NCBI GenBank assembly: GCA_905178155.1
Contig: CAJINV010000005.1
Coordinates: 3,292,833 to 3,356,832, forward strand
DNA from: Amoebophrya sp. A120
Taxonomy: Eukaryota; Protista; Dinoflagellata
Direction: 5' to 3'
Length of the DNA: 64,000 nucleotides
The position numbers were made by a program, and so were the translations under genes. The notes beneath the pieces are model-generated. The model did not search any database. It was given only the letters and a program-made list of their open reading frames with translations, and was not told where the DNA came from. Positions 1-63,149 of the stretch are shown piece after piece. Every line of letters begins with the position of its first letter. Positions within the stretch are counted from its first letter, which is position 1.

Positions 1-194
1 TGCAAGAATAGCAACAGGAAAAGGCCGGATCTTGCAACTCTTGCATTACAAATTCGGCACAGATTCCCTTTCCCATGCTCTTTAGCGCTTCCAAAATTTG
101 TCATGCGAGGCAGCTTCACTGTGTGGACGTTGGTGCTCATTTTGCATGACAAATCATGTAACAGTATGAGAATGTAACAGTTGAGAACGCCATA
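1..194. mobile_element. Introner, right part only (family of 23841)
   Basis: Ends TGTAACAGTTGAGAACGCCATA, like the right IR at 24063-24099. Contains TTGTCATGC/GCATGACAA motifs, and coding sequence resumes at 200. Confidence 0.75.
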
Positions 195-199
195 GCGCA

Positions 200-3100: not shown

Positions 3101-6015
3101 ATATGCTCCTCCGCTACCTGGCCGCGCGGTTGCGGGGCGAGGGCGGAGACAGCGAGTCGAGCAGTCTGGTCCTGGGGCACTTAGCTTCCGTCCCGGATTC
3201 ACAAGTCGCGGCGCTCTGCGACCGACATTTCATCCAGCTGTATGCGAGTTGTCTGGTGCAGTTGTCAAATTTCACGGACGTAGTGCTAGCAACCACTGCG
3301 ACCACCGGGAAAATGGCCTACAGTAGTACAATTTCTACCGCGTCCTTTGGAGGCGCCGGGGGTTCTGGCGGTGGTGTCAGTAGCCCGACCGCGTCGACAC
3401 GGAGTTCATTGGTCCTCAACGGTAGACTGCCGTCGGAAGAGCAGGGCTTGCTTGCAAGTGCGACGAGGGAAATAAATGATGGTGGCTCGCCGTCTTCACC
3501 TGCGAGCAAAAACCAACCGCAGAATCCAGGAACGACCAGGAACAACAAAAAGCACCGAACCAGGAGTACGAGCGATAATTTCAGTTTCCAGGAGCCAATG
3601 CTTTTTTCCGGCTCTTCGCAGAACAGCGGACTGGACTTGATAACTCCCGGGGTCGAACAGTTGCACGAGGTGGCGCGGAAACAGAACGAGCTGCTCTGGG
3701 CGCTGCAGAAAGTTTTAGAGGCAAGTGGAAATCCGTCTATGGCGTTTGCGATGGAAAGGCACTTCGGGCTTGTCGACAGAGCTGGAGCGCAAGAACAGCA
3801 AAACAACTTTGGAGGTGGTGGTCCTGCTCAAACGAATAAAAAAACATCTTATTCGACTTCGACTTCGCAGGAGCTCCTGCTACCGGACGACATGGTTGTG
3901 GAATCGTTGGTGGCTTTGTTCACCCAGTTTCACCCGAAAAAGATCCTGCAAATGGCCGACTTTTTCCGGACGGGCGTGAACGCAGAATCTCTGCACCGGC
4001 AGGGAATTGCGTTGGGAATTCTGGCACAGATGATTGCGTGCATCGACGTGCAGCAAGGTTCAGATCATGAAACACGGCATCAACCGTCGAATTATAGTAC
4101 ACAAGAGCAAGAAGCGGTGGATGCCAAAAATTTTCATTCCGGCGAGGGGCAGCTGTTGCTGGACTGTATTCGCAATTTCGTTCCCTTCGCGAAAACCAGT
4201 TTGGAGGAGAGCAACCGGAAGAAGCTACAGCAACATCGCGAGGTTCTTCTAGACAACGCGTTCCTGCAGCGACGATCGGTCAGGGCGTTGTCCTATCTGT
4301 TCGTCGCACTAGCGAATCCGCACAACGTCGCGTTTTTCGCCCATTTAGACGCCGACTTGACCACCCGGACGCTCAAAATCGCGTTGGAAAAACAGGACCA
4401 GGATACCGACACGGTTGCCGAGGCAGTTGAAGCGCTATCGAAGTGCGTCCTGGCGGTGGGGAGTATGCATTGCAAATACATAGAAATCTTCTGGGTCTGG
4501 AAGGGGGCAAACTTGTCGTGATGCTCTCTGCCAGTCTTCACACAAAATAAATCTGGCGTGCATGAATAGAAAAAGCTGTGCTCACGACTTTTGGCCACGC
4601 TGCGAGCAGATCTCTCATGCAGAATAGGCATCGTCGTGAAGCTCTTGCAGAAGCAGAACCTGTGACGTTGCGCCTTGCATGCCAAACCTTCCGTGCCTTG
4701 CAAAACCGGCATCACAGACATCTGCAAGCTTCCAGACCCAGCAGACCTGTATAATTTGCATTGGATAGGAGAGTTTTCCAAGTTTGCGGCGGAACAAGAA
4801 TCGACACTGTTTCAGAGAAAAGAACATCACAATGGTGCGATGAATGGCAACGGGCATAGTGCTTTTCACGGCAGCTACATGGAAGATCACGCGAGCAACG
4901 CCCTGGACCTACTGGATCACGTGTTTGATGCAGGGAATTATATCACGAACGCAGCGACTGCTGCGGATCTCATCGACATCTTCGCGCCAGACCCACGGGC
5001 TGCCGGAACCAGCCCCTTGAAGAACGGAACTACAGGACCACGATCAGGAGGAAAAGAACTAGAGACTTCTCATCAACCTTATACCACAACCGCAGCGAAG
5101 TGGAAGAAGTTGCTGCTCGATCGCTGCTTCGAGCGGCTTGGCGGTTTGTTGGAGCGCCCCGACGCGAGAATACGGGCCCGCGCCATGGACCTGATGGGAA
5201 GTATGTCCTCCGGTTTGTTTCTGGAACAGGTGTCCGGGGGGACCTCGTCCAGCCCTTCTACGAGGAACAAAAACCAAAACGTCCGCGCAGATGAAGATGA
5301 TTATATCCTGTCTCCGAGCAAAGCCGCCAGGCTGAACACCCCTGGCGAGGCGCTGCTCCGGCGCAACAGCATTCGCTGCTGCATCCACATTGCGGACGAG
5401 AACGTCGGCACGCGGGGCGCCGCCACCGCTTGTCTCGAGAACCTCTGCCGCAAGTTCGCCGAAGGCGGAACCACGCCCGCTGCCCGCTCGGTCATGCGCG
5501 CGCCGGATTGCTTTGTGCAAATGGTTACAACTACGACTGGTGCATCAGACTACGTGGATGAAGTAGATGCACAGAATGCGCAACAAGCGGCGACAATCAC
5601 AATTATGGACGTCTCCGAGCTTGGCCGCGTGCTTCGAACGTATGTGTCGCCTTTGCTGGAAGCGGTTCTTCTCGCCGACCACGAAAGCAAAAAATCCCCG
5701 TCTGCCCAGGTGGACGCCCTGTTCAGTCCGACGAGGTCGCGAACCGTGCAGCAGACGTTGTGGCGGGAGCATTTGGAGGTTTGTGAACAGTACCTGTTGG
5801 AGGAGTACGCGGAGCAACTGCACGTTTCCGCGGGGTTCTGCGCGGTCTTCGTGCTTCGGGCCGCAAAGGTGGCCTTGCGGGGCAAAACGGAAGATCCGGT
5901 GACGGAGGCGGACTTTGAAAATCTGAGTCGAAAATTGCTGCATCTCCTGTCCACGGAAGAAACCGAGTTGCTCCCGGTATTGGCCGAACTGGCGAGATGC
6001 CAGGCGAGTGGGTGA
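200..6015 (+). CDS. Large HEAT-repeat protein, possibly maestro/MROH1-like (5' end lies outside the window)
   Basis: Exons 200-398, 608-4463 and 4773-6015. GT-AG intron 399-607 and introner 4464-4767(+5) both join in frame. HEAT-like segments include IYPRLGDSDPSVQEVAKNAFQHLF, LLERPDARIRARAMDLMG and IHIADENVGTRGAATACLENL. Family assignment is from recalled resemblance only. Confidence 0.6.
4464..4767. mobile_element. Introner, family A
   Basis: IRs contain CTGGGTCTGGAAG/CTTCCAGACCCAG. Flanks GGGAG/GGAGA are degenerate. Removing 309 nt is in frame; a 306-nt GT-AG alternative (4463-4768) is too. Confidence 0.85.
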
Positions 6016-10100: not shown

Positions 10101-13100
10101 CGAGCGAGCTCGCCTTCCGGGGTCAAATGGTGGAACGCTTGCCACCCGTGGACGTGCGACAGTTGGGGAACTGGGATCGAGTCGCCGGCGGAGGTGGGAC
10201 GACGGGCCATGGACCACTTGGAGCACGTAGTTCCTCTGGTGGTCCTCTGCAACAGGAACAGCAGCAAGATCTCCATCTTCAAAACACGACGATGCATTTC
10301 AACTTTTTCCCTCAAAGAGGAACTGCTTCTACAACAGGAGCTGCAAGTTCATCTTGTACGGAGCATCGCTGGAAGGAGATCCACTACGCGTGCGGGGTGA
10401 ATCTGGAGGTCGTGGATTCGGTGGAGATCAACGGCAGTGGAGCTAGTTGTGAGAACAGCAAGAGCAGTGACGGGGAAAATCAAGGGATGAAAAATGGCAT
10501 TGATCTCGACGAGCTTGCCAGTAGGAGCAGTGACGAGGAAAATAATGGTAATCTGCATCACGACCGAGAAGTACAAGACCACACTGGGCGTGTTGAAAAG
10601 CCGAACACGACGACCGCGAAAGGGAAGGACAAGTCGCAGGTCGTGAATGAAACTGTGGAACGGGAACTCCAGCCCATCACGCTGAAGCGCGAGCTCCGGA
10701 AGAAGCGAGTGGACGGCACCTGGGTCGAGACCAGCTGTATTCTGACACTGCATATCAAATGTAAAAGTGTCTGGGTCTGGAAGAATCATGCTGCTTTTGC
10801 ATGACACAGAAGGTCTGGCATGGAAGCTCTAGCGTCACAGGTTTCGAGAAGCGTTCGCAATGCCGAATCCGCATGACAAGTCCCTGACTTTGGTGACAGA
10901 AAGTGGGCAACTTTTGCTGCCTATGCATGAGAGATTTTTCTGTGTTCTGAAATGCGCATGACAAGTTCCAACCTTCCAGACCCAGACATTTTTACATTTG
11001 ATAGTGCAGCTGAAAAGTTTTCTAGATGGAATTTTCGAACATAAAGAAGAAGACGAGTTTTATCCTGACGGCACTAAAGCGGATGGCGACGACGTGGTCG
11101 ACGAGCAAAACAAAAAGCACTTCTTCTCGTTTGCTGGTCCTGCGCAAGGGGAAGATGAACTACATGCACAAGGTCCACGAGACGCAGACTTTTCCGCTTT
11201 TGCGTTCCCTGCTCGTTCGCAGAGCAAAAGCTCCTGCTCCGCGAGCGAAGAGGAGGATCGCCACGAAGGAGGGGACGTCGGTCGTGCAGGCACTGCTGCG
11301 GGCTCTGTTGGTAATAAAGGAGACCACGTCCTCGTCGAGAAAAACCACGTCGCAAGAAACGGAGTTGACTCGAGTACGAAAACAGGAACAAAGGTCGTGT
11401 CCTCGTCGTGTAAAAAACCGCGGCAACTCACGACCAAAACTCACTCTACGGTGACTGCCTTAACGGATGAACAAAAGGAACAGAAACAGCCAGAGTATGA
11501 TGAAGAGCCCTGCTTCTACGTGACCACGACCGAGCTTTTCCGGACGGTACTCCACCCCCACGAAACCCGGGAAGAGGAAGATGAGAACGCGATTAATTTC
11601 ATCCGGAACGAGCTGAGCAGCCCCCGGAACTTCCCGCACAAGACCTTTCGCGGGAAGAAGTGGAACTGCATCACGACGCGGCAGCAGAAGAACCGCGAGC
11701 AGGTGGTTCCGCTGGCCTGTGAGCAGCGGAAAAAGTGGCGACAGATGCGAAGACGGCTGAAGAGCGACCTACGGCCGGACCTGTACGGACACCGGGTCGT
11801 GCACGAGTACCGCGACGGCCGGATAGAGGTGGTGCACCAGCGGACGCGGCTGCTGCCGCTGCGGGGTTTGGAGGAGATCTTTTTGAGTGGAACAAATGGA
11901 GGTTGCTGTGATAAAAGTGAAAATCAATCCGGCAAGAAGAACCTCACCGGCAGCACGCTTGCGGAGCAGATTTTGAAAACGTCAAGCAATAAAGTCGATG
12001 TGAAAAAGTTGACATCCATTCTCCTCAAGCAGCTCCCCGACCCCTTCGAGTTGTTTCTGGAGCTCTGCTATGCACTGTAAAAGCTTCCTCGTAGTCGTAA
12101 GTAAAAATTAAAATTTTTGCAAATCTTGCATGAAAGGCCACAACCCTCTCGGGTTGTGGCCTTTCCTCGGAGGTGGGGTTGGGCTTGGGGCGCCAGGCGA
12201 ATGGACGGCTTCGCAGCTACGTTGTGATCGACAAACTGAGATCGACGATAATAGTTGCGTTGCTGGTTCTGTGCCAGTCGCGGGGCATGTTCGGGCGTTC
12301 CGGGCTGTGCTTTGTGCACCCCTCGGACCCCGCACTCCCCCGGGCTCGGTAGCGCAGTCTGTTAAGCATGACAAATGAAATTAAGCTCCCATCATGCAGA
12401 TGAGCCAGAGTCAGCATGACTTTCCTGTTCAAAAAATTTGTCATGCGCTTTATACTGCGTACGGGTACGGCAGAGCTTTTGCAATGTATATCTGCAAGGT
12501 GAACGGTCTGTCCACGCCGGAGAAAAAGCAGTTAGACGACCTGGACGCCTGCACGGCTGCGAATGCGGACTCCTTTCCCGCGGTCTTGCGGTACGAGAAC
12601 GCGGTCTTGATGCAGGAAAACGACTGTTTGTTGACCAACTCGCAAAAGAAGAAATTGAAACTAGCCGCCCCGGAGGCGTTGTGGCAAAATGCGGTGGGAG
12701 TGTTGGTGGGGCAAATGCAGGCGTGTTGCACTAGTAGTGCGAGTGCGGTGCGTACTGATCGTACTTCTTCTACGATGCGCGGAGGTTTGAAGCAGAAGCT
12801 ACAAGGCCCACCGGGCGGTGGACCAGCGGTGGAGGGCGTGCTGCAACAAGGAGCAGGGAGCGAGAGGAGCCACTCCTCGGTACAGTGTCCTCGTAGTTCT
12901 TTACGAGAACCCTCCGAAGTAGGACGCATCAATACGAAGACCAGTCCGCACTTCGGCCTCGCCCCCGAGAAGACTTGTGGTAATGAACAAAGTGGTCTTC
13001 ATGTTGGAGATAATTTGGCTTCTAGTGCTGGTGGTGGTACCGAGGCTGCAGCTTCGGGCTCAGCATCAGCTGCACACGATAGTACTACCGTGGTCTCACC

Positions 13101-36330: not shown

Positions 36331-36594
36331 AGGATATGGGCGACAATATGGATATGGTGGCGAGACACCATGACCGTAATTAAGGTTGTGGTCTGCTTTC
36401 TCGGTCGAAGTACAATTTGCAACGTTTTTTTGAGTCCATTTTTTTTTAGTTCGCTAGAAGAGCAGTGGCTCGTCGGTCCGGCGAGCGATGGTTTGTTGTT
36501 TCGACTCGCATTCTTGGACCCAATCTGCGAATAAAAAAAGCAAACTGGGGCCACGCATCTCTATCATGAGTGCTAATTTTTTTTTTTCCATGTT

Positions 36595-47500: not shown

Positions 47501-50034
47501 GCACCTTTTGCAAGTCACGCAACACAGATTTTTGTATGATGCGCAACATGCATCACAAGTTGCATCGTTCCAGACCCAGACATTTTTGCATTTGATAGGG
47601 CAGAATCTTGGACCACTTACTGAACACCCAATCCGTATGGAAGCGTCAGGTTTGAAATCCTCAAAGTTGAATAAATAATTTGTAATGCATAAAATGCGAA
47701 GATACAAAAAGTGACTCTATTGCAGAGGACCCAAGGGAGGCAGATTATAGTCCTGGCAAGGGTCAAAAGTTGGACTACTATCTAGCATGACAGAAGGCAG
47801 CTCTTTTGCCCTAAACCGCATGACAGACTCGCTTCCAGGACCGGGAAAATTTGCCATGCACCGACTACAAACTGCAGGCCTAACTGGCATCCATTTTATG
47901 CATGGCAAATTATTTTTTCAACTTTGTCGATTTCAAACCTGACACTCCCATAATCCGTGCACTTGGAAATGCTTGAAATCGTGGTTTTCGACGAGGCAGA
48001 TCGGCTGTTAGAGATGGGATTTCGGGACGAGTACAATTTCAACTTCATCGCAATCATGCTTTGTTTTTTCAGCATAGAAGTCGCGCGCGTGCCAGACTTT
48101 CACTGATTCGATTCGCACCTTCAAGCTAGTACAAAGTTACTGTTAAAGTTAGATAAAGTTAACGAAGGACGCCTTAGAAGTTGCACAGCGCTTCGTCGTG
48201 CATCATGATGAGAAAAGAAACACTACCAAGATGATACGACTTTTACGTGCGTCAGGAAGAAACATTGCCTACAATAACAATACCGATACCCCACAACTAA
48301 AAACTCGTCCAGGTGCAAGGAAGTGCTGCGTCGGTGTTCGCACGGGCGCCAGACGCTTCTTTTTTCCGCCACCTGGAACACATATGGATGTGTCAGGATT
48401 GAAACCGACAAAGCTGAAATAACTTGCAATGCATAAAATGGATGAAAGTTGTGACCTAGTTTCCCAGTGGCGCATGACAAATTTGGGTAGAGCCGAAATC
48501 CAGTGCGTCATGCTGTTTGGGTAAGGAAGACGCCTGCTGTCTTGCTATTTTAGTAGCTCAGTCTCTACCCCTCAACAGGCTTACAATCTGCCTCACTTGC
48601 CTACTCTGCAAGACAGCCACTTTGTGGGCTGCATTTGTCTTGGTATTTTAGGTGCATTTTATGCATGACAAACTATTTCAACTTTGACGATTTCAAACCT
48701 GGCGCTTCCATAACACAGACGTCCAGGATCTCGCCTCCGTGGCGCTGAACAAGCCGCTTCGCATCGAGGCGAGCCAGACCAACAAGGTCGCCCGCACGCT
48801 GCAGCAGGAGTTTGTCGCGGTGCCGGAGGAGTCGAAGCGGGAGGCGACGTTGCTGCACCTGTGTAAAAACACGTATAAGAACAAGGGCGTGATCATTTTT
48901 TTCCAGACGAAGAAGCAGTGCCACCGCATGGCGATTTTGTTCGGGTTGATGAAGCTCAACTTCGCGGAACTCCACGGGAATCTGTCGCAGACGGAACGGT
49001 GTGAGAACGTGTCGAGGTTTCAAAACAACGAAATCTCCTATTTACTCGCGACCGACCTCGCGGCTCGGGGTTTGGATTTGCGGAACGTCGAGTGCGTGAT
49101 AAATTTCGAGGTGCCCAACGAGGACGCGAAGTACATACACCGGTGCGGACGAACCGCGCGCATGGGCCGGACCGGGCAGTTATGCAAGAAAAAAACTGTG
49201 TAAGTGTAACTCTGTAATGCGGAACATGCAAGAGAGTTATGCCTGTCATGCCAGACAGCCACGAAGTCCTCTTTCCAGGTGTGTATTCCCTTACAAGCCA
49301 CGCATGACAGGTTTGTCATGTAGAGCAAATCTGTGATGCTGTCAGCCAAACAAAGAAAGTTACACTAACACAGTTTTTTTCTTGGATAGCAGTCCGTCAC
49401 GTTGCACTGCGGTCAGGAGGAGTACAGACGAGTGAAGAAGTTGGCGAAATTGTGCGCGAAAAAGGTCAACAGCAGTTCATCCACTGGGGAGGGAGTGGAC
49501 GACAAGAATTGTGACGCTTCATCTTCTCCTGCGTCGGTTGTAACCAAGCGCAGCATCGACGAGTCCGCTTTGGACAAATTGGAATGGCAGATCAACCGGT
49601 TTCAACAGGACGTCGTCGAGGTGCTCGAAGAAGAGAAAACGGAGCGGGAGTTGCGACTCGCCTCCGTGGAGTTGAGCAAGGCCGAGAACCTCGAGAAACA
49701 CAAAGACGAGATCGCGGCCCGGCCGAAAAAGGTGTGGCGGCTGACCAACAACGAGAAGCAGAAGCAGCGGGAGAACGAGAAGGAGATAAGAATGGCCCTG
49801 GAAAAGGACTCGAAGAAGGAATCGCGAAAGCAAAAGCGGATGCGGATGGACAAGGAAATGATGCAGAAGCAGAACGTCGCGAAACAAAAAATCGCGAAAC
49901 GAAAAACGACCAGAGCAGCTGCTGCGAATGGAGGTTCTGGTGCCACCTCTGGTGGTGCCTCGGGGATGATAGGAGGAAACAAGAAGAAACCCGTTGCGAA
50001 GGGGAAAGGAGGAAAGAAAAATTCGCGGAAGTGA
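44540..50034 (+). CDS. DDX27: DEAD-box RNA helicase DDX27/Drs1 (60S ribosome biogenesis)
   Basis: Exons 44540-45679, 45954-46152, 47603-47635, 47958-48030, 48313-48382, 48718-49180 and 49394-50034. Motifs: Q motif (ATAIQ), AETGSGKT, PTRELA, GG, TPGR, DEAD, SAT, LHG, TDLAARGLD and HRCGRTAR. The acidic N-terminus and RPKKVW coiled-coil tail fit Drs1. Confidence 0.88.
46153..47597. mobile_element. Introner, family A, expanded by a 1.18-kb nested insertion
   Basis: Family A IRs with exact DR GGGCA. Removal rebuilds DEAD-box motif Ib, TPGR. Confidence 0.95.
46307..47483 (+). mobile_element. Retroposon-like insertion nested in an introner
   Basis: Flanked by AGCATG on both sides and ends in a (TAC)4 tail. 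The host sequence is uninterrupted in the related element at 61375 (reverse strand). Confidence 0.75.
47636..47952. mobile_element. Introner, family B
   Basis: TATGGAAGCGTCAGGTTTGAAATC...GATTTCAAACCTGACACTCCCATA with exact DR ATCCG. Removal leads in frame into VVFDEAD. Confidence 0.95.
48383..48712. mobile_element. Introner, family B
   Basis: Family B IRs with exact DR ACACA. Joins FSATWNT-DVQDLA. Confidence 0.95.
49181..49388. mobile_element. Introner, family C
   Basis: TATGCAAGAAAAAAACTGTGT...ACACAGTTTTTTTCTTGGATA with exact DR GCAGT. Joins GRTGQ-SVTL. Confidence 0.95.
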
Positions 50035-50683
50035 TTTTTAGGCGGGACCCCGGGGAATTATAGATCGTGCTCGTGTGCAGCTTGGTTGTTGCATTTGCGG
50101 ACAAACAAGCTTCAACTTGTAGCTCTAGGAGCAGAACAAGCACAATGCGCTTCGGCAAGAAAAAGCGGAAACTTAGAGCTCGCGCCTGCGTTTTATTGTG
50201 TGCTGATGTGCATCAACTATCACTATGTAAAGGAAATCATGAGTGGTCTGCTTTCGACACATACAAAAGTGTTCGGCATCGAGGCTCGCCTTCGACGTAT
50301 CTACGTACGAGGTGATGTTCATCTTTATGGTCTTATTTTGCCGTGTGACAATAATGTCCCAAAGGTCCACGTTCATCTGTCTGTTGCTGTATTCGAGAGA
50401 TGGAGCGTCAACAAGAGTGTGTGGCCACAGAATCCGTAGTAGTTCTTCAGTGCTGTCACGGACAAGTATATGTATAACGGTGGGAGTACGCGCTTCGGAC
50501 GCGGCCCGTCCCGTTGTGCGGCATAATTTGATTTGCACCAACATTTGATGACAAGAAAACTGTCTTGGAACTGAGAAAAACAGTAAGTAACAACTACTTT
50601 CGTGGTCTCTTCGAGTACTAATTTCTTCACACAAGAACAACGCTTCCTCACCGGAAAGAACAAAGCTACCAGACCACATCAAG

Positions 50684-53600
50684 ATGGGCCGCGTTTCGAC
50701 GTTTTTTCCATCAAACCGTTCTCTCGCGTTGGCGACAGCCGTGGGTGCGGTCTCCCATCTGGTGGACCTTGTCCACTCGGTGGACGCAGCCTCCCCCCTG
50801 CGGACCCACGAGAACCAGAAGTTTTGGGACAAGCTGAGAGAGGGCACAGAAAACACCAGCAATGGAGGTGGTGCAACCGAACAAGAGGAGAAAATGGCGC
50901 AGCGGGAGAGGTTGTTTGACCGGGCGCTAGAGCTAGCGACGGCGCGCTCGTCGGGAAGTAGCTCCTCTTCTGCAGCTGGCAGTGGGAAAATTTTACCAGC
51001 AGAAGACGAAGAACGTGAATACGCAGCGGTGGTGGAAATAAAGTCAGCGAAAGATCAGGTTGAGAGCAGTCAAAGAACGTCGTCTCCAAGCACGACTACG
51101 GCCAACGAGAAAGACCAGGACAAGGACAGCGAGAACGGCACTATGAACCTGCAGACCACCGACCCCGAGATTGCGAAGTTGCTTCTGCAGGCCTCGTGTC
51201 AAATGTAAAAATGTCTAGGACTGGAAGAGTCATGCTGTTTTTGCATGACACAGAAGGTCTGGCATGGAAGCTCTAGCATCACAGGTTCCGAGAAGCTTCC
51301 GCAATGCCGAATCCGCATGACAAATCCCCCTTTTTGGTGACAGAAAGCGGGCAGCTTTTGCTACCTATGCATGAGAGATCTTTCTGTGTTCTGAAATGCG
51401 CATCACAAGTTTGTACTCTTCCAGACCCAGACATATTTGCAATGCATACCTCGGAACAGCTGCGCACCGCGTCCCACATCGTGTACCAACACGTGAATCA
51501 CGTGGCACTCGCGGCGAAAAAGCAGAAAAACAACCTCCCCGTCCACGAGGAGTTGAGGCTCCGGATCATGAGGGCCAAATGTCGGAAAAAAGACTACAAA
51601 AATTTGCAAACTTCTTTTTTTCCCATGGCGAGGAACGCCACACACCGTGGCGCGTTGTGCTCCCTGGCTTCAAGTCATGCGTGGGCTATTTTTCCAGTTT
51701 GCTTCGCGATTCACTTCATATTTTAAGCGCTTTGCTGAAGTTCGCGGGCTTCCTCTCATCCCGATTGGAGGTTGTGTGGTGGGCGCAGTTAGTTTTCTAT
51801 TCCGTTTGCCGGATCGACAACACCATCGACCCTGTGATCATATACAAGGCGCTTTCCGGTTTTTCCGGTTTGCCTTGTTGCTCCTTTTAAATTTACCAAA
51901 AAAAGTTCCCAACTTCATACCCTTTCAAAAAGTTTCCGTAAACACGAGCGGAGTCGGAAAGATTTTGCGAATGTTTCCGAGAGTTTTCGTTCTCTTTTTT
52001 TTCTCTTTTCATTTTTTTTCGCGAAAATCGATTTTTGTCATTTTTTGAATTTGGGTCTTTTTGCTCCATCGAACGCGTCATAGCATGCGTGTTCGAAGTA
52101 GGCGGCTTCAAAACCGCGTGGGCTTCTCGTTTCTTTCTCGCCTAGTAAAGTTTTCTTGTGGGTTTTTGCAATGTTTCTGCAATGACACAAGACCACACCT
52201 GGGCGGGACGTTTCCTTTTCGCTTTGCCATGCGCTTTCTTCCAAGTTGTTTTTTTGGCCGCTCTCCTATTGGGTGGCGGCCTTGTAAATATTTCGGTCTT
52301 TTTTCCAAGGCAGTCATAATCAGGCCTCGGCGCTTCAAGAGGAGTCCGATTGGATTTTGGATTCCAAAGCATACCATCCGGCCCCCTGGCGTTAACTGAA
52401 AGCAAGAAAACCAGAACGACCCACCTTGTTCGCATCTCAACACCACGGCCAAACGGCTCGCCTTGTCCCCACCTAGATTCGCCGTTCGCTGAAAGCGAGA
52501 AAACCAGAACGACCCGCCTGGTTCGCATCTCAGTCCATCGGCATCATTGCGAAAGCGGTCGGGGCATGCCTGGTATGCTGGGGAAAAATAAAAACAAAGA
52601 GAAAGAAAGCCAAACGGCCCGCCTCTTCCCCCTCTAAAACCACCGGCGTGCCGCCGCGGCCTCGTTGCCATGCTGCTGCCTCACGCGTTTGCGCGTTGGG
52701 CGCCTACGTAATCCGCCCGGGGCTGGCGCGTGTACACGCAGCCCCGATGGTGTGGGGCGCACGCCTTTTGTGGTGTGCATGCCCAGCATCACAGCCATAC
52801 GGCTCGCCTTTTCCCCACCTAAGTCCCCCGCTCGCTGAAAGCGAGAAAACCAGAACGACCCGCCTGCTCTCGTCTATCTGCGCCCAGTCCCTTCCTGTTT
52901 CTATCTCGGTCGTGCCGGTTGCTTTTCTTGATAGTTTACGACTTGCGTCCTCTCTGTTTCTTAAGTTACAGCAGCGCCTTTGTTTCTAAAGTTATGATCG
53001 TGCTAGACTGTTACTAAAGTTATGGTCTACGACCATGGCAGCGACTTGCTCTCTGCGATCTACTTGCTCGTCGACCGCGATGGCAAAGGCGGCAGAGTCC
53101 AACGCGATCGCTTTCCAGGCAGTCATAATCAGATCGATTTCGGTCTTTTTTCCACGCGATCGATTTCGGTCTTTTTTCCAAGGCAGTCATAATCAGGCCT
53201 CGGCGCTTCAAGAGGAGTCCGACTGGATATTGGATTCCAAAGCAAAACTGCTGGATTACGAGGACGAAGTCACCCTGAAGAAGGACAAAACGGCCCGGAT
53301 CCATATGAGAGTGGTGTACAACTCGAACTCTCCCTCTACCTCATTTGTGTTATGCAAAATAAAAATATAAATACTATTACTAAGTTATTCTATTCACCCG
53401 ACAGCGACACCTTGTTCGTCAGCACTCCTTGCATCGACAAATTTTGGAACCTCGAATTATAGGACTACAATCCGCATGCGCATGCAGATTTGTCATGTGG
53501 AAGCCCCTTATTTATATTTCCTGCTGTTGCTTCTGCTTGTGTTGCTGCTCAGGCCCTTCAAATGAGGGGCAGCAGGGGGAGGTCTGCACACTCATAACCC

Positions 53601-54781
53601 ACCAACTGGAACCATTAATGGAACCCGAAGTGGCCACCATGGGAGACGTTCTGACAAACTGCAGGAAGGGACGGGAAGCAGCGGGGGATGTGATTAAGTA
53701 ATAGTTTTTGTTGATGATGTGTTGTTGTCATGCGTAGGGAATTTTAATGAATCGTTATCGTACTTGATTCGTCCTCCGCCTTCCTGATGAAAGTATCTTC
53801 TTCATGCTGCCTGTCAGGGTAGTGGCAGGAGGAGCATCCATGCGATTCTATTTCTAGCAAGAAACTGTAAGACCGATCTAAATCATACAGCCCCAAGTAG
53901 ATACAAAAATAAACCCACCAGGCGCGACCTGTACCACCCGCGGGCCGACAAGGTCCGCGTGAGTAAGGAGGTGAAGGAGGTGGCGAGAGAGCTGCAGGAC
54001 GTCGCTGGGGAGATCCGCATATCCTGTGCAAAAGTATCGTAGTCGTACTCGTATAAATGCATTACAAATTTCCTCAGCATGAGAGATAAAATTTGTAATG
54101 CTGATTTACCTTGAGAGAAAGATTTGTAATGCATGATTGCAATACCAATAGAATACGAGTGCGATGCTTTTGGACAGGATACCGCAGCGAATACATGAAG
54201 ATGATCATGGGCTTTGCTAACGCGATATCAAATGCAAAAGTGTCTGGGTCAGGAAGAATGCAAGATCTGTCATGCATATTTCTCATGACCCATGATGCCT
54301 GTAATGCATGGCCTAGCATCGCAGACTTTTAGAGGGCTTCCAGATGCACCTTCCGCATGAGAAAACCCTGTCCGTGTAGCGCAAATTGTGCCCCTCTTGC
54401 TGGTCATGCAATACAAATTTTTGTCGAGTCCAAAAACAGCATGACAAGTTGCAATCTTCCAGACCCAGATATTTTTGCAGTTGATACGCGATCGTGGAAA
54501 ATTTTTCGGAGAACAAACCGGCGCATCATTCCGCGGGCGGGATGAAAAACAATCTGGTAGAGCTACAGGTGAAGGAGAAGGAAAAAAGTTTGGCGAAAAC
54601 GGATCCGGGTATTAACATTAAGGCGGGTGATCAAACGATCTCAACATCATCCGCAACCACGTCGAGTAGTAGTACACGGATCATTTCAAGGAAGACAAAC
54701 AGCAGGGCCGCGGCGGGCTCAAGAACAAGGTCGTCGGAGACTTCGGAGGAGAAAACTTTGCCAGATGTGTATGCTTTTTGA
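50684..54781 (+). CDS. Hypothetical protein with four introners and a 1.6-kb GT-AG intron
   Basis: Exons 50684-51196, 51454-51580, 53183-53303, 53602-53697, 53922-54019, 54187-54225 and 54492-54781 stay in one frame. The 3' end is uncertain. Confidence 0.6.
51197..51448. mobile_element. Introner, family A (TGT start variant)
   Basis: Interior closely similar to 10753, with exact DR CCTCG. Confidence 0.92.
52291..53244 (+). repeat. 80-bp direct repeat of a splice acceptor plus exon start, flanking a repeat-rich spacer
   Basis: 52291-52370 vs about 53164-53244. Internal GCTGAAAGCGAGAAAACCAGAACGACC repeats near 52396, 52488 and 52835. Confidence 0.8.
53304..53596. mobile_element. Introner (family of 13346)
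   Basis: TATGAGAGTGGTGTACA...TGCACACTCATA with flanks ATCCA/ACCCA. Confidence 0.85.
54020..54181. mobile_element. Introner, family E
   Basis: TATCCTGTGCAAAAGTATCG...CGATGCTTTTGGACAGGATA with exact DR CCGCA. Confidence 0.93.
54226..54486. mobile_element. Introner, family A
   Basis: Family A IRs with exact DR CGCGA. Confidence 0.93.
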
Positions 54782-55743
54782 GATCGATCGAGTCTCCTCG
54801 ACCATGTGGTTTTTATATTGATCGGTGATTCTTATTTCGCGTTCACACAACAACGTACGACTACGATTAACAATTCCCTTACAAAAACATCAACCTCGAG
54901 AATACAGAAAGTTACTTGCACAGATATCTAAAGGGTGTTGAGAGCTCTTTCTTGCTCACTTCACCACACGATCTACATCAAACACAATTTCACGACCAAT
55001 GAGCTCCATGCACTCGAAAGAGGCTGCTGCATGGGCAGCTCCATATCAACATAGAGATAGACGAGGACGAACTGAAGATGGAGCGAAAAATAACGTCAAA
55101 ACGACCATCAAAACGCGTAGCAGGATGGATGCTGCTCCTGTTAGAAGTGATGATAACACAGTTTGTGGTCAACGTTCCGCGCTCCGTGTTGGGTACAACT
55201 GCTTTTCGAGGCCAGTACCACTGTTGCGACGACCACAACCAGTGGCATTTTTGAGTGCTTGTTCGTTGTTTCATCTCGGGATAAACTTGAAGCCGTCGGC
55301 GCGTTAATTGGTTTATTCCAGGTCAGCATCAGAAAAAGAACTGGAAAAGCATATAGCATTAGCATATTGCAAGAAATAGCAAGATGGATCTTCACCTTTA
55401 CTGAGAAGCTTCTCAAATAGGTATAGGACTAAGTAGTATCACAATTTCACTGTGTTTTTCCAACTCACTTCGCATCTTCGGTGCAGTGACATGTTCATCT
55501 TGATCGGCTCTCAAACAAAAAAAACGTGTGACTATACTGAAAAAAATACTAGAAGTTCTCACTTTTGGTTTTGCCGCTGTGAAATTCGCATGAATCCCCA
55601 TGCATATATAAAGATGAATAAAATTCGCCACTGAGCCACCGTCGTATTATTTATTTTCCCACTCAGATATTAGTCTGTCATATGTGATAAGGAGTTGTTT
55701 TTTCCAGCACTTGTATGCACAAATCCGATACAAAATTTTCAAG

Positions 55744-58700
55744 ATGGTTTTCCTGCTGTCTGAAGAGGATTTCCACCGGCTTTCGAAGCCGATGGAAAAA
55801 CGGGTGCGGTACCTGGAAGAGCAGGTCACACTCCTGACCAAGGCGCTCCACGACGCAAACCTGGTCGAGATTGGCTCGCCGAACGCGTGCGGAGTGGACT
55901 TGGAATTCATGGAGGAAAATGGATCATGTGCTGGGCTGCAGGACACCGACATGATATTAAGCGGCCATCAAGAGATGAACCACGAGCACAAAAAGATGCG
56001 GGCTACGGGTCGTGAAGTAGATGATATAGAAGTTTCCTCTTCTTCTTGTCGGAATATTACTTCTTTTACCGGAAAAATACAGAGGTGTGACACGACGACA
56101 ACGCACACGACAGATATCAAGAACACCAAGAAAGCGGTCAAAGAGCAAGATGTAGTCAAAAACCCATTTGAAGAGGACATTGCGAATTTCAAACTCGACG
56201 ACCTCGAAATAGAAATCGACGACGACGCAGAGGACGGGTTGGCGCTCAAGCCGCATCCCGCAACCGAGCTTCCCCTGGGAGGTGGAGACGCGATGAACAA
56301 AAATAACGATAAAAAACAAAAACCTGCGAACACTTCTAGAAATGCGGCGCTTCATCTGCCGGATCAGCAGAAACAAAACGAGGCCGAGGCGAAGCGCGAG
56401 CAAATATATAACCCTGACTCACCGGGGTTCACTCTCAACGAGCTAGACGGGATAGAGGACCTCAACACACGCCTGCAGCAGGAAGTGGAATATCCAGTGC
56501 AACAAATATGATGTCTGGGAGGTCCGCCTCTGGAACATAATTCCAACTTGTGATGCGGAGTTGTCAGGAGACGAGGAGGAGGACAAAAAAGATGTCCATG
56601 TTCGATTCAGACTAGGCATGGAAATAAAGCCTCCGCGGAATATGCAATGCTTTGTGTGCATTGCAATGCTGGGTTTTTTATAGGGTGCAAAAAGGGCGTG
56701 ACAAATATGTTTTCTTCGGGAGGACCCAGACATGTTTGATATGGAATCAGGAGGAAGCAAATTGGGGGCGGAAGAACTCGCGAGTGGGGCAGCAGGGGTA
56801 CAGTCTTTTACTTTAATGTATCAGTCTGGTTCTTCTTCTTTCTTCTTCTTGATAGTCGATGTTGGAGTAGCTGTCAGACTTTCTGTGCCGCTGCTTGAAA
56901 AAATTTATTTGTTCTATGCCACACACAGCCTGCCCGTCGGCGAGACGAGCATGGTGGGGGCAGCTCTTTGAGCACTTCTAAACAGGAAACAAACAAAACG
57001 GACGAGGGAAGCAATAAGTTGTCCTTCTTACCGTTTTTGAGCAAGACGTCCACAACAAGTGGTATGCTCCCTGGTACCGGCGTGTCCTCGTCCTCTTCCT
57101 CTTCTTCTTCATCCCGCGCGGGCCTCGTCAATAAAGGTGAAAATAAAGTCGACCTTCAGACCAGATCCTTCCAAAACAAAACCGCCAATATTAGAGAGAA
57201 CATCAAAACGAGCAGTGCCAGCCGCCGGGATGTTGAGCAAGATCGTGGTCCTAGCGCTATCAAAAGTACGAGGGGGCGTCAGGAAGAAAAGGAAGCAACT
57301 GCTTTGAAGGTGGAGCGAAGTTCTGGTGGTGGCGCTGCTGTAATTTCCATGCGGGAAGGCGGTTTACCGAGCCAAAGAGTGCTGCTGCCCAATTCATCAT
57401 CATCATCCCGAGGCTTAGCTGCTCGGCGGTCCCGGTCTGCGAGACGGCCTCTGCGGTCCCGTGAACGGACGGGCGGGACGAATTACCCGCCAGAGAGCAG
57501 TTCTAGTAGAACGACCAGGAGCAGAAGACCGGCGGCCCCACCAGTGGGTGTGAGCAGGTACGCAGATCACCTGTCCGAGCCGCGCAACAAACACAGAAGT
57601 CGGGAGGACCGCGAGCGGCGAAGACATTCGCCGATCTCCTCCCGGCTCCTGGCGGCGGAAGAAAGAAACAAACTGGTCGAGCTGCCCCACATGCGGACCC
57701 AGCGACCCATCTCCGAACGGGTTTTGGAAGCCGAGGAAAAAAACAATCGGAAAAACGTACGACCTGCTCAGAATTAAATGATACAATCCCAAACGGCATA
57801 GTTATAGACTCTTCCTTGATTTGAAGATTATTGTTTTTCATGAACTTGCGCTTTACTATACAAAGTTCGTGAGGCGGGTATTTATTTTGGCCGCTCCAGA
57901 ACTTGATGTCCTGCGTATACTTCCTGTCGTGATAAGAGGAACGAGAGGCTGCCAGATCGTGCCTTTTGCTTTTTGCATAGATTTAGATAGGCTTGCGTTT
58001 TATTTGTCGTCACCTTTGAGGTTGTATTTGTCACTACACCTGAGCAGGTCATAAAACGTGGTGAGCTCTATTTCGGCGAGAATTCAGCTGGAGGAGGGAC
58101 ATCAACCACGGACTTCTACTATGAACTGCAAAAGTAGCGCACTAGTATAAATTGCATTACAAATCGGCTCAGCATTACAAATTAAATTTGTAATGCTGAT
58201 TTCCCTGAACACCTAGATTTGTAATGCATAACTGCAATTAGTACGAGTACGATACTTTTGCACAGGATATCTACTTCTCGTGTCGACCGCAGGAGGTCGA
58301 GAAGTGCTTTGCGTTCTACTACACGAACACGAGCAGCTTCTGCTGCGGAAAGGAACGAACACGAAGCACAACGCTCTGCGTTGTTCAACACCAAAAATCC
58401 GCGGCGGTTTTCCCTCGAGAGCAGGAAAGACAAAGAGACACCCAAAACTCCTTCGAAGTCGAACAGTGAACAAGTTTTACAGGTGGTGGAGGCCACAGGC
58501 AACATAGGCATCATATGAACTGCAAAAATGTCTGGGTCTGGAAGAGTTGGAACTTGTCATGCGAATTCATTCTGGAATAGGCAAAAATTTATATTGCATA
58601 AGCACCAAGAGCTTCCCATTTATTGCCACGCAAATAGGGAATTTCTCATGCGGGATAGACATCAGGAGGCCTGCGCAAAACCTGTAATGCTTTTGCGTGC

Positions 58701-58966
58701 ATTAGAGACCAGTGAGTTGCGTGATCGAGAAGATGCATGACAAACTCCTGCAATCTTCCAGACCCAGACATTTTTGCATTTGATACATCAAGTTTGAAGG
58801 CGAAAAAAAGCAGGACAAGAAGGAGGATACCAGACCACCGTACTCGATCTTCAGTAGCGGACACAACAAGGGCGGGCCCACTAACAAGGGGAATTATAAA
58901 CCACCTGCCAAAGTCGTAACGGTGCTACCACCACCGTTTATCCCGACGAAAAACAAGGAAAGGTAG
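55744..58966 (+). CDS. Hypothetical low-complexity (S/R-rich) protein
   Basis: Exons 55744-56490, 56747-56796, 56986-57756, 58088-58119, 58275-58513 and 58791-58966 are in frame after removing three introners and two GT-AG introns. Confidence 0.55.
56491..56741. mobile_element. Introner, family A-like, degenerate
   Basis: TATC..ATGTCTGGG / CCCAGACATGTTTGATA with exact DR TGGAA. Confidence 0.88.
58120..58269. mobile_element. Introner, family E (150 bp, smallest complete copy here)
   Basis: Interior homologous to 54020, with exact DR TCTAC. Confidence 0.92.
58514..58785. mobile_element. Introner, family A
   Basis: Family A IRs with exact DR CATCA. Confidence 0.93.
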
Positions 58967-59725
58967 GAGCGAGTGGTTGTATGCATATGCCACCGCATCA
59001 TGCGCTCATTTCTCTTTAGTAGTCTACTTCGAGCAATGAGAATGACATCAAACAACAATAATTCGGAGGTAGCACATTTCTTTATTACTTCTGCACCCAG
59101 ATGATAGAGTTAGAGTTAGAGATAGAAGCTAGCTCTGTAAAAAGCAGCCTCACTCTGGTGGAGATGGTCCTCAACATGGACGCCGGTCGTCCTCGCGCAC
59201 CATTTCTCCAGCTAGTTCTTGGGTTCCACTCCTTAGAAAAAACTCAACGCGTCAAAAATAAAGCCAATGAGTCAGAGTCGAGCGTGTGAAAGTTTGTGCG
59301 TTAATGACTGCGCTTCGCTTTTATCATGCGGTAGCGTAGTTTGAGGTTGTGGATAAGTTCTTGAGAGAAGCTTGGAGATTTGAAAATCGGGCCTTAGAAG
59401 CTTCTTGTTTCGCTCTTCTCGTGTCGGAAAGTTTAATATTTCTCGTAGAAGATGATACAGTCTGTCTCTGTCCCTCGTGCATCTCAATCATCAAGAAATT
59501 AAGCGTCGGCATTTTCACTTTGATCCTAGTATAGATGGAATTTGTTCCTTGCTTGTCAACATCTAGTGTTTTTTCTACCCCAGCGTCCTTGTTGTTTTTC
59601 TCTTGTCCAACATCGTCGTGAGGACAAGAGGTTCGCGTTCAAAAAAAGACATCATACATAAGTAGATTTTCAGCAGCAAGGAAAAATTCATCGAAATCTA
59701 AGATCGTGAAAGAACTTTAACAGCC

Positions 59726-62700
59726 ATGCCTACGGCAGCCTCAAGTTCTTCCACTAAATTTCTTCTGTCGACTACCAGCGGCGTGCAAAGCAGCAGTGCT
59801 AAAAACATGCCAGCTGCGGGTAAGATGAACAAGACTTCATCCTCCAAGGCCGCACCTCCAGCGGGGAACAAGAATATCAAGACGAAGAGCAGTAAAAAGC
59901 CCATGCTGTCTGTGAAGGAAATGCGGGAGATGAAGAAAAAGAAGATGGTGGTGCGGAAAACCACCGCAGCGGCAGCTATGAAGAAAAAACCCGCCGCCTC
60001 TGGTGCAACTGCTTGGTATTGCGGACGACGGAACAAGAACACCCAGACAAAACAAGGGGAAGCGAAATCGAACAAATCGTCGAAAGGAAAGACGAAAACA
60101 CATGCCAAAAAAGAAGCAACCGAGGAGGAAGAAGACGAAGAGGACGATTCTTCAGAAGACGACACAGACTCAGACGAAGACCCGCGGTTGAAGTGGCCCG
60201 CGCTGGAGTCGAACCCCGAGGCGTTCACGAGTTTCATGCACCGCGTGGGCGTCGCAAAGCAGTTATCGACTGCAAAAATGTCTGGGTCTGGAAGGATGTA
60301 ACATGTGATGCGCATTTCGGAACACACAAAAATTTCTCATGCAGAGGTAGCAAAAGCTGCTCACTTTCTGTCACCAAAGTGGGGGATTTGTCATGCGGGT
60401 TCGGCATTGCGGAAGCTTCTCGAAACCTGTGATGCTAGAGCTTCCATGCCAGAGCTTCTGCGTCATGCAGAAACAGCACGACTCTTCCAGACCCAGACAT
60501 TTCTACATTTGATAGCAGTGGCAGTTCCACGACGTTTTCGACTTGGACATGCTGGACCAGATTCCGGACGTCACCGCCCTGGTTTTGCTCTACCCGATCG
60601 TGGACGAAGAGGGCGAAGCACTCATGCCCACGGCGAACCGGAAACGTACTTTCTGTTTCTATAATTTCCGACAGAATAAAGAACTTTGTCATGCATGCCT
60701 GAGTCTAAGTAACCTGTGCCTGCTGTCTGTGCATGTTTAATAAGTAAGTAACTTGTGCGAATCCAAGTGATTCTATGACGCAATTTTTGACAGCATGAAT
60801 TTTTACACGTGCTGACGAGTGAGACAAGTGATTAAAAATAAACTAACAGCAACATGCCTATGCACAAATGCTCTTACTTTACAAACAGGAGTGAAATTGT
60901 CCGATGACGCCCCCTTCTTCATCTGGCAGGGCGAAGACCTCGGGAACGCGTGTGGTACCATTTCCATTATCCATGCGGTTGCGAATATGGGAGTGTCAGG
61001 ATCGAAATCGACAAAATCGAAAAGTTTGTAATGCGTAAAACGTAGGGCACATAAGGCCTGTGTTGGAGAGGAGGCAAATGAGACCGATTGCAAGCCTGTC
61101 TAGCCCCAAACATGTATTGCCAGAGTAGCATGACAGGCGCAGTCTTCTTTGCCCAAACAGCATGACAGGCTGGATTTTGATGCTCCCAAAATTTGTCATG
61201 CGGCGGTTGGAAACTGAGGCTCCAACTGGTATCGACTTTATGCGTCGCAAATTATTTCGATTTTGTTGATTTCGATCCTGACGCTTCCATAGCGAACTGC
61301 GAGCAAGTGGCGAAAACCGTCAAGAAAAAATCCGCGCTGAGCGAGTTCTTGGCGAAATGTAAAAAGATGACGCCTATCAAGTGCAAAAATGTCTGGGTCT
61401 GGAAGAATGCGAACCTGTTATGCGTGTTGCGGATCATACAAAAATCTGTGTTGCATGACTTGCAAAAGGTCTCCACTTCTGGCCATGCTGAGAGGGCATT
61501 CCTCATGCAGAATAGGCATCACCAAGGGACTGCAGAACGTGTGATGCTACTCCCTGCATTCCAGACTTGGCGGAGCTTGGAGAAACTGCATGACAAATCT
61601 CGGAATCTTCCAGACCCAGACATATTTGCAATCCATAACGCCCGAGGAACGCGGGAGTTTGCTCGACCAAGACGAAGCAATCATGGAGCACGTACTTTTT
61701 CGTGGTAGTTGTGGTCGTGAAGATCATTGTGATATCGATATGTTGTAGTTCCATGTTGTATGCAATACAACTGTCTACTTCGGCCTAGCTAAGAAGGTCT
61801 TGACGCACGAGACCGATTTGTATCGCAGCATTGCATCTTCAGCTGGCTTTTTTCTGATGCAGAAATAATACGGGAATCATGATACATGACCAAAAATACA
61901 TCTTCAGGTTGCCGAAGTCGCTTGCGATGCGGAGTTGAACCAGACCGATTGGTACAAGTTGGTTGAGGACGATGATGACGACGACGATGACGATGAGGAG
62001 GATATTCTGTTGAAAAACGTCCCCGCCCCTCAGACTCCAGATGTTGCTGTTGGGAACTCTGCAACCCAAATCCAGGTTTTTTAAGACTCAACACGCATGA
62101 CAATTCAAAGTCTCTGCTCGTACTATCTGTAGAGTAGTGCATCGCGCAACAAGTTCTCAGCAAGGGCAGCCGCAATTATACCTTGACATTAGAGCCATCT
62201 TCTTATTGTGTTTCCAGCATATCAAGTTCCAAAACGCGACTAGGGCGGATGTATCATGTTGCAAATGTTTCAGTAGATGCAAATCTGCCTGACACCAGCG
62301 CTAGTAGGGAGGTGGAGACGTTTTTACTTGGGATAGATGAAGACGAGGATGAAGATCCGGAGGTTGATTTAGACACCGACCACCACTTCATCACCTTCAT
62401 ATGCATCACAAAATTTGAATTTCGTGCTAGAAGTAATTGCCTAATTCGAATGATCCAATGATTTTTTGCTTAACCACACTAGCATGGAAAAGAAAAACTG
62501 AATAAATGAAAAAGAAAATTGCATGTGCTGTTTGATACCCCCTCCAATGATCGACATTTTCCATTTTGCACGAAGTACTATATTGCAATTGCCGCGAGTT
62601 GTGCGAAGATGTTTTTGCGCAGCATATCTCATCGAGAAAAACAACGTGATCTATGAATTGGACGGCCTCCGCAACATGCCACTTAAGGTCGGCACGACCA

Positions 62701-63149
62701 GCAGTAGTTGCAGCACTACCTCCTCTATCAAATGCAAAAATGTCTGGGTCTGGAAGATTGGAACTTGTGATGCTAACTTTGGACTCTAGAAAAATCTGTA
62801 TTGCATGACCAGCAAGAGGAGTCTAGTTCGTGCTACGCGGGGAGGGCGTTTGTCATGCGGAGTAGGCATCAGGAAGCCCTCTCAAAATCTGTGACGCACG
62901 GCCGTGCATTGCAGAAATACTGGCTCATGCAAAACATGCATGAGAAATCTCAGAATCTTCCAGACCCAGACACTTTTACACTTCATATCCTCCTCATCTT
63001 CCAGCGCTCGTAGTACAACCACGTCGGCGAAGAACAAGTCGAATTTTCTCCCGGAGGTTGCGAAGATCATCAAAACCAAGTTCCTCAACCGTGCGCCGGA
63101 AAACATGCAGTTTGCAACCCTGGCGCTGGGCGGCAAGGAGAAATCATAA
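59726..63149 (+). CDS. UCHL3: Ubiquitin C-terminal hydrolase, peptidase C12 (UCHL3/UCHL1-like)
   Basis: WPALESNPE, WQFHDVF, ALVLLYP, catalytic Cys in QGEDLGNACGTISIIHAVAN, His in HHFITF, Asp in YELDG, and C-terminal QFATLAL. Five introners plus GT-AG introns (60646-60888, 61692-61907, and one unresolved near 62050-62270). Confidence 0.85.
60264..60514. mobile_element. Introner, family A, opposite orientation to 10753 and 51197
   Basis: Exact DR GCAGT. Joins KQ-WQFHDVF of the UCH. Confidence 0.95.
60986..61291. mobile_element. Introner, family B
   Basis: Family B IRs with exact DR GCGAA. Joins HAVAN-CEQ. Confidence 0.95.
61375..61637. mobile_element. Introner, family A
   Basis: Exact DR ACGCC. 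Joins MTP-EERG, a typical UCH segment. Confidence 0.95.
62400..62626. mobile_element. Degenerate introner between the catalytic His and Asp codons
   Basis: TATGCATCACAAAA...TTTTGCGCAGCATA with flanks CTTCA/TCTCA. Joins HHFITF-IEKNNVIYELDG. Confidence 0.88.
62726..62987. mobile_element. Introner, family A
   Basis: Family A IRs with exact DR TCCTC. Confidence 0.93.

Follow-up and report, generated by a model that had tools for sequence, protein, structure and literature searches.

A TTGT-N-ATGC motif shared by hairpin-forming introner families of Amoebophrya sp. A120, a possible subterminal docking site for a mobilising enzyme

The DNA analysed here, referred to as the window, is a stretch of 64,000 nucleotides from Amoebophrya sp. 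A120 (contig CAJINV010000005.1, positions 3,292,833 to 3,356,832). Its genes are interrupted both by ordinary GT-AG introns and by elements with inverted-repeat ends. The subject of this report is a short motif, TTGTVATGC on one strand and GCATBACAA on the other, which an earlier note on the same stretch had described as recurring inside these elements. Three host genes were recognised by Pfam, and all three are interrupted by both intron types:

14117-15699, plus strand, cyclin gene (N- and C-terminal domains)
17791-19911, plus strand, gene for a DUF6827 protein
44480-50031, plus strand, DEAD-box helicase gene

The elements were found by repeat searches and by a scan for inverted ends that start with TA and have flanking duplications. 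This gave 34 inverted-repeat elements totalling 10,459 nt, or 16.3% of the window, with lengths of 150-420 nt plus one of 1445 nt. They are listed below without strand; the sign after a motif position is the strand of that match, and RNA joints are given as the two positions joined.

1-194: family C, cut by the window start; motif 43(-), 98(+), 144(-); right tip TATGGCG...
4464-4767: degenerate A-like, flanked G...G; no exact motif, four at one mismatch or fewer; 4463-4768 readable as a 306-nt GT..AG intron; no RNA coverage
10753-11003: family A; motif 10871(-), 10956(-); RNA joint 10748>11005, skipping 256 nt
12069-12490: family D, duplication TCTGC; motif 12366(-), 12438(+); RNA joint 12063>12491
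13346-13605: family H, duplication GGACA; no exact motif, two near-motifs; RNA joint 13340>13606
14384-14593: family J, decayed duplication; near-motif GCATGACAG; RNA joint 14382>14598
18961-19299: family K, old, duplication 2 of 5 bases; motif 19186(+); RNA joint 18958>19303
22370-22690: A-like (A2), duplication ACGTG; motif 22597(-); RNA joint 22364>22691
23307-23683: family B, duplication GAAGT; motif 23469(+), 23622(-)
23841-24099: family C, duplication GTGTG; motif 23990(+), 24040(-)
25968-26120: family L, old; motif 26068(-); RNA joint 25965>26124
26164-26443: family E, duplication GGGAA, first of a tandem; motif 26195(+), 26357(+); RNA joint 26161>26771
26449-26767: E-like (E2), second of the tandem; motif 26536(-), 26712(-)
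33904-34189: family E, in a segmental duplication; motif 33935(+)
39997-40282: family E, post-insertion duplicate of 33904-34189; motif 40028(+), 40107(+)
41603-41921: element M, duplication GCAGG; no motif even at one mismatch
46153-47597: long family A, 1445 nt, duplication GGGCA; motif 46266(+), 47550(-); TTGTTATGC at 46193
47636-47952: family B, duplication ATCCG; motif 47680(+)
48383-48712: family B, duplication ACACA; motif 48472(-), 48663(-)
49181-49388: family F, duplication GCAGT; no exact motif, five near-motifs (CTGTAATGC 31 nt in)
51197-51448: family A, duplication CCTCG; motif 51315(-), 51400(-); RNA joint 51191>51449
53304-53596: family H; no exact motif, three near-motifs; RNA joint 53300>53599
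54020-54181: family G, duplication CCGCA; motif 54059(-), 54093(+), 54124(+), outer copies outward; RNA joint 54014>54182
54226-54486: family A, duplication CGCGA; motif 54439(-); RNA joint 54219>54486
56491-56741: A-like (A3), duplication TGGAA; motif 56548(+)
57758-58053: C-like (C2), duplication AAACG; no motif
58120-58269: family G, duplication TCTAC; motif 58154(-), 58172(-), 58188(+), 58219(+)
58514-58785: family A, duplication CATCA; motif in both arms, 58554(+) and 58735(-)
60264-60514: family A, orientation opposite to 10753 and 51197; motif 60388(+); RNA joint 60257>60514
60986-61291: family B, duplication GCGAA; motif 61026(+), 61193(+); RNA joint 60980>61292
61375-61637: family A, duplication ACGCC; motif 61588(-); RNA joint 61369>61638
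62003-62335: E-like (E3); motif 62095(-)
62400-62626: family I; GCATCACAA at 62403 within the tip (TAT-GCATCACAA-AA); RNA joint 62396>62629
62726-62987: family A, duplication TCCTC; motif 62765(+), 62850(+); RNA joint 62720>62988

Nearly all arms (63/67) begin with TAT, and 44 of the 67 fit TAT followed by five to nine bases and AAA; families B, C, and H are without the AAA. A perfect 5-base flanking duplication was found in 22 of 33 elements, with four of five bases matching in 5 more. Terminal inverted repeats with a target duplication of fixed length are features of DNA transposons and of MITEs (miniature transposable elements with inverted repeats). The inverted-repeat pairs can form hairpins, and the folds give z = -6.4 to -9.1. 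An all-against-all BLAST of the elements joined only families A (9 elements), B (4), E (3), and G (2), leaving the others standing alone. The earlier note had called the families unrelated, which is too strong given that tips and duplication length are shared; they make up a single superfamily, marked by TAT tips and target duplications of 5 bases. The copies lie at many unrelated sites, as the 34 in the window are joined by family-A copies in 31 other loci described below.

RNA contigs from runs X1-X4 skip ordinary GT..AG introns, and thus represent spliced RNA; they also skip elements. At most element joints no allowed shift yields GT..AG on the plus strand, the strand of all GT-AG introns seen. 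All 17 element joints skip the length of the element, or of a tandem pair including its 5-base gap, and exactly 5 bases more, and a decayed duplication makes no difference to this (e.g. 14382>14598, 18958>19303, and 25965>26124). In the sole unambiguous joint (14383-14597), 1 base ahead of TAT and 4 bases past ATA are removed with the element, a placement that fits all 17 joints. Given the 5 extra bases in elements with decayed duplications and this placement, the RNA cut appears to be measured from the hairpin base and not from the duplicated sequence. One A subfamily is spliced in both orientations (joints 10748, 51191, and 60257). Raw reads from runs X8-X10 on 44001-64000 were 122, 2, and 0, mostly from another family-A copy, and are uninformative on splicing.

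The E tandem pair (26162-26770) leaves RNA as a single 609-nt unit; its second member is inserted directly after the GGGAA duplication of the first. The long family-A element at 46153-47597 has normal ends and ~1.2 kb of extra interior, with the bin 46669-47335 free of RNA contig cover, and its open reading frame (ORF) at 46428-46919 gave no Pfam match. At several places (4463-4768, 15598-15796, and 25966) a G before the TAT tip creates GTAT, a usable 5' splice site. Such G-preceded tips hint that a hairpin introner could turn into a canonical intron. The TATCCT tip may also resemble the 5' splice site of U12-type introns.

Farhat et al. (2021, PMC7789003) described introners in A120 as non-canonical introns of ~240 nt whose end repeats consist of TAT, seven bases, and AAA, with direct repeats of 3-5 nt. 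According to that paper, the A120 genes all lie on one strand, the introner families are many, and no splicing signature was found. The window elements match these published non-canonical introners: they are of comparable length, are removed from RNA without GT-AG borders, and have hairpin-forming inverted ends with the A120-type TAT tip and direct repeats at their borders. Genes confined to one strand and a large number of families are further points of agreement. Unlike the description given here, that of PMC7789003, in text and supplement legends, covers end and direct repeats only.

The motif TTGTVATGC/GCATBACAA has 49 matches on the two strands of the window (25 plus, 24 minus), against a mean of 1.87 and a maximum of 8 in 100 dinucleotide shuffles, bearing out the earlier note in both recurrence and dual orientation. 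Eleven of the twelve places that the note had named are matches to within 1-2 bases; the twelfth, near 54103, falls between matches at 54093 and 54124. In an unbiased word count, TGTCATGC came out first of all window 8-mers, with 41 observed and 3.4 expected under an order-3 Markov model. The 8-mers ranking just below it all come from the inverted repeat of one family. After trimming of the outer 20 nt, 12 of the 18 family interiors contain TGTCATGC, while 200 shuffles reached 5 at most; between families, the sharing is therefore real and not an effect of copy number. The other top shared words of the family interiors all overlap the same extended motif.

The form of the motif was probed by fixing eight positions and varying one. 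It proved to be a bipartite site in which TTGT and ATGC are nearly invariant and the base between them is variable. With the middle base free, the pattern TTGTNATGC has 50 matches, with position 5 being C in 29, A in 12, G in 8, and T in 1. The V that the earlier note had set at this position thus describes 49 matches and misses the T at 46193. The flanks have a preference as well, RA(T/C)-TTGTNATGC-R.

The matches are confined to introns. By compartment, 47 of the 49 TTGTVATGC matches lie in inverted-repeat elements and 2 in canonical GT-AG introns; exons, ORFs, and other sequence (~51 kb) hold no exact TTGTVATGC. The same comparison for TTGTNATGC and for matches with at most one mismatch, where the chance level is ~0.76 per kb by an arithmetic estimate, is as follows:

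Elements, 10.5 kb: 48 exact; 10.6 per kb at one mismatch or fewer
Canonical GT-AG introns, 2.0 kb: 2 exact; 4.4 per kb (9 matches) at one mismatch or fewer
RNA-supported exons and plus-strand ORFs, 30.4 kb: none exact; 0.7-0.9 per kb at one mismatch or fewer
Other sequence, 21.1 kb: none exact; 1.1 per kb at one mismatch or fewer

The impression by eye in the earlier note that the motif is rare in exons was correct. An exact copy is present in 27 of the 34 elements, and a copy with at most one mismatch in 32 of 34. Relative to the plus-strand genes, the TTGTNATGC matches inside elements are 24 sense and 24 antisense, showing no bias. The two exact copies in canonical introns are both sense:

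53698-53921, plus strand, canonical GT-AG intron; motif 53725(+), 27 nt past the 5' splice site; RNA joint 53697>53922
60646-60888, plus strand, canonical GT-AG intron; motif 60686(+), 40 nt past the 5' splice site; RNA joint 60645>60889

The position of the motif is also restricted. Among exact matches that read inward, 20 of 28 sit 31-57 nt from the element end; at one mismatch or fewer the count over the 67 arms is 34 of 52 at 30-59 nt and none at 0-29 nt. This agrees with the note's remark that copies lie just inside the inverted repeats. A second group of inward matches at this looser threshold lies 110-119 nt from the end. The motif is often in both arms, with extra copies ~31 nt and ~110-125 nt deeper. 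In four arms a copy lies inside the tip itself at offset 3, exact in the element at 62400.

Relatives of family A were sought by scanning metagenome contigs with a 15-base word of its repeat, giving 128 loci, of which 31 have family-A ends and none of these overlaps the window. The 106 motif matches in the 31 related loci (26.8 kb) amount to 3.96 per kb; there are 0 in the 97 chance loci (69.2 kb). Elements of other families in the related loci have the motif at the same place, among them relatives of F and C and one further family with the motif 31 nt in on both arms. The combined set of family-A arms numbers 59, with 12 from the window and 47 from the other loci. The motif is exact in 45 of these and has one mismatch in 7, starting 8-10 nt after the 31-nt inverted repeat, and four of the six arms without it retain GTCATGC flush against the repeat. 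Over the 59 arms, information is 1.86 bits for the eight fixed positions, a figure somewhat inflated since the arms were aligned on the motif itself, against 0.57 for the spacer, 0.61 for position 5, and 0.60 downstream.

Divergence was counted from cluster consensus sequences, with the arm clusters built on the sequence beyond the motif. By this measure the motif diverges at 13 of 320 sites (4.1%) and the interior at 322 of 2276 (14.1%), a 3.5-fold difference (p=2e-8). The corresponding counts are 65/352 for the spacer, 81/640 for the outer 16 tip bases, and 10/40 for position 5. This island of identity at a fixed position, with a free middle base and lower divergence than its surroundings, supports a sequence-specific site probably kept by selection rather than a neutral leftover. 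The binding-site idea of the earlier note is partly supported to that extent; its premise of unrelated families is wrong.

A neutral leftover was the refutation that the earlier note itself had raised: one ancestral element whose motif has not yet decayed in its descendants. Shared tips and duplication length do make common descent plausible, yet arms of different families defy alignment over the 20-45 nt from tip to motif, and still have the same eight positions identical. Family-A arms differ from one another in the sequence and length (8-10 nt) of the spacer and in position 5, but the other eight positions stay constant. With divergence of 4.1% in the motif against 14-18% beside it, the conservation island disfavours ancestry alone, and we regard this explanation as very improbable.

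Family-A arms carry further structure. A looser second site, AAATCTGTNWTGCA, lies ~31-32 nt deeper than the motif. The ends have two tip types, TATCAAATGYAAAAAT and TATGSATTGCAAATAT, as well as distinct arm types, and position 5 is systematically G in some arm types and C in others; left and right ends of family A can therefore be told apart. A spacing of ~31-32 nt corresponds to about three turns of DNA and, along with strand symmetry and repetition, would suit recognition by a host protein that binds DNA, or a structural property of the DNA, with no part in movement or splicing, for example in chromatin marking or silencing of the elements. The CATGC core may also resemble sites of AP2-type factors in related parasites. 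Against a host role, the 21 kb of sequence outside introns and exons holds no exact match, the position of the motif is tied to element ends, and no data point to such a factor. We consider this explanation improbable.

We propose that TTGT-N-ATGC may be a subterminal DNA docking site for one mobilising enzyme of the hairpin-introner superfamily, a proposal to which we give about an even chance. In this mechanism the DNA-binding part of a transposase or integrase-like enzyme would bind the motif sites, and the bound enzyme would pair the two element ends and cut at the TAT tips. If only copies that retain the sites can be copied, families with different arms would all come to carry the motif. 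The copies in GT-AG introns would derive from unsampled introner families or from introners that acquired GT-AG ends. A short motif that recurs within each end at a fixed distance, and that is better conserved than the sequence beside it, fits the pattern of inverted-repeat DNA transposons or MITEs with subterminal transposase-binding motifs.

The main competitor to this proposal is a mark at the RNA level, in which the transcript, as a single strand or as a stem, would be bound by a factor of the non-canonical excision machinery or by a general intron-recognition factor. Such machinery must recognise introns that lack GT-AG borders, and its precision is evident in the 17 joints of element plus 5 bases; all 49 TTGTVATGC matches lie within introns; and canonical introns are enriched too, with the two exact copies starting at the 28th and 41st intron bases in sense orientation, the same range as in the elements. 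The folds place the motif within the extended stem. Strand counts of 24 and 24, however, show no preference for the sense orientation, and the copies whose exact motifs are all antisense (10753 and 51197) are spliced like the sense copy at 60264. The distance from motif to cut also varies, from 31 to 57 nt. The absence of strand bias, the splicing of copies in either orientation, and the 31-57 nt between motif and cuts favour a DNA-level site over a single-stranded RNA signal.

The arms mismatch at position 5, where G and C arm types would fail to pair in an RNA stem and where no co-variation between the two arms was seen by eye in alignments, so that it is not pairing that is conserved, and an explanation by pairing alone was rejected. 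A local hairpin (GTCATGC-loop-GCATGAC) was likewise rejected, as an inverted partner within 60 nt was found for only 12 of 50 matches downstream and 14 of 50 upstream. In Euglena, the signals sufficient for non-conventional splicing sit at the stem base (Nomura et al. 2025, PMC12501133).

Duplicates and old copies bear on whether the motif is kept in place after insertion. The family-E elements at 33904 and 39997 share duplication and flanks and differ at 3 of 48 motif columns and at 8 of 235 columns elsewhere, a comparison that is a single pair and underpowered; in this small sample there is no sign of constraint in place, which also speaks against an RNA mark. The duplication of the third E copy is another one, which makes it a separate insertion. 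Seven old elements with decayed duplications keep about one exact motif each, again in a small sample, and those still spliced fit an RNA mark. Overall, we rate the RNA mark as rather unlikely. A related and more specific claim, that TTGT-N-ATGC is a recognition element for removing non-GT-AG introns and amounts to a second intron code carried by mobile elements and ordinary introns alike, seems to us doubtful. The layout, the absence of strand bias, and the post-insertion duplicate pair lean toward an enzyme acting on DNA and away from an RNA factor.

Several observations weigh against the docking-site proposal. Pfam scans of 108 window ORFs (14 + 94, out of 251 of at least 90 amino acids) turned up neither a transposase nor an integrase domain, and so no cognate autonomous element among the ORFs scanned. 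Farhat et al. reported that strain A120 yielded no transposase and spoke against spread driven by such an enzyme (PMC7789003). Canonical introns are enriched in the motif across their 2.0 kb, with 2 exact copies and 9 at one mismatch or fewer where ~1.6 would be expected by chance. In families D and G the outer copies face outward. The motif in old elements could be kept in place, and the test for such constraint comes from one pair of copies. The canonical introns were also considered as decayed elements: when nine of them were compared by BLAST with all of the elements and the related loci, a single 17-nt chance match came up, which is weak evidence with so small a database, and the idea was set aside.

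LTR-type (long terminal repeat) integrases often make 4-6 bp duplications. Inverted-repeat introners with ORFs like the integrases of LTR elements are reported from A120 (Gozashti et al. 2025, PMC12130899) and are candidates for a source of the enzyme. Like the window elements, they have inverted-repeat ends; an integrase ORF was not found among the window ORFs scanned.

Layouts comparable to that of the window elements are known from several systems. Plant transposons of the Ac/Ds and En/Spm types, and their MITEs, have short motifs repeated in either orientation over the outermost 100-250 bp at each end. The transposases of Ac/Ds and En/Spm bind these subterminal motifs, which non-autonomous relatives share. 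Both belong to other superfamilies with other duplication lengths than the window elements. Among transposons whose enzyme docks inward of the end repeat, the clearest parallel is the P element of Drosophila, reviewed by Ghanim, Rio and Teixeira (2020). It has 31-bp terminal repeats, 10-bp transposase sites 9 and 21 bp in, and 11-bp inverted repeats ~100 bp in, with spacing unequal between its ends (PMC7776569). The window elements resemble it in layout only, having a 31-nt repeat, a short spacer, a site of 9-10 bases in both arms, and deeper copies. They differ in having 5-bp duplications and TAT tips, and in that the motif is only a putative binding site; the P element makes 8-bp duplications, uses a THAP transposase, and is not removed from RNA by its ends (PMC7776569). 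The non-conventional introns of Euglena likewise lack GT-AG, have ends that pair, and are removed exactly, as are the window elements (PMC12501133). The Euglena code consists of CAG/CTG near the stem base with fixed spacers; the window tips are instead TAT...ATA, without CAG/CTG at the stem base. In the available parts of that paper, no internal motif 30-60 nt in is reported, and a duplication of the transposon type is not part of the code.

Other features of the window belong to different kinds of sequence. A stretch of 1665 nt at 51547-53211 is skipped in RNA with no GT-AG and no TAT tips, and is bounded by the 7-base repeat GAGGAGT; ~50 nt from its 3' end, together with the start of the exon, are repeated inside it, and it may be a duplication-derived intron of another kind. 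At 30719-31881 there is a near-perfect foldback of 1.16 kb whose 247-nt arms are 94% complementary, with nested palindromes and tips of TATCCCAAC-poly(A) (30948 and 31652); no Pfam match was found for its ORFs. Inverted arrays of the 11-base unit GAATCGACAAG, flanked by repeated CAATTG-TACGAAA words, occupy 20285-20973. RNA contig depth is zero over 20341-21007, and the arrays look like another kind of repeat in an intergenic gap. A segmental duplication of ~3 kb with 90-97% identity, introner included, relates 33436-36586 to 39532-42651, and a further paralogous piece relates 27138-27573 to 38974-39407. Two large exons (1309 and 1102 amino acids) had no Pfam match, and a protein search with the 1102-amino-acid exon found no relative.

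While the introners are already known, no published description of the internal shared motif was found in the literature searched, with subscription journals (e.g. Roy et al. 2023) falling outside it. No mention of it was found in the text and supplement legends of PMC7789003, the legends being free of CATGC and GCATG and its sequence logos being figures beyond the reach of a text search. A search of dataset S2 of Gozashti et al. (PMC12130899) gave no family-A repeat, motif, or organism name. As a short conserved site common to the families, TTGT-N-ATGC offers a concrete bait for DNA or RNA pull-downs toward the protein involved, and it is a simple marker by which introners that have diverged or been converted, some GT-AG introns among them, could be traced. 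Should the site act on RNA, it would belong to a new code for recognising introns; and if it is a second intron code, each new insertion would arrive pre-marked for removal.

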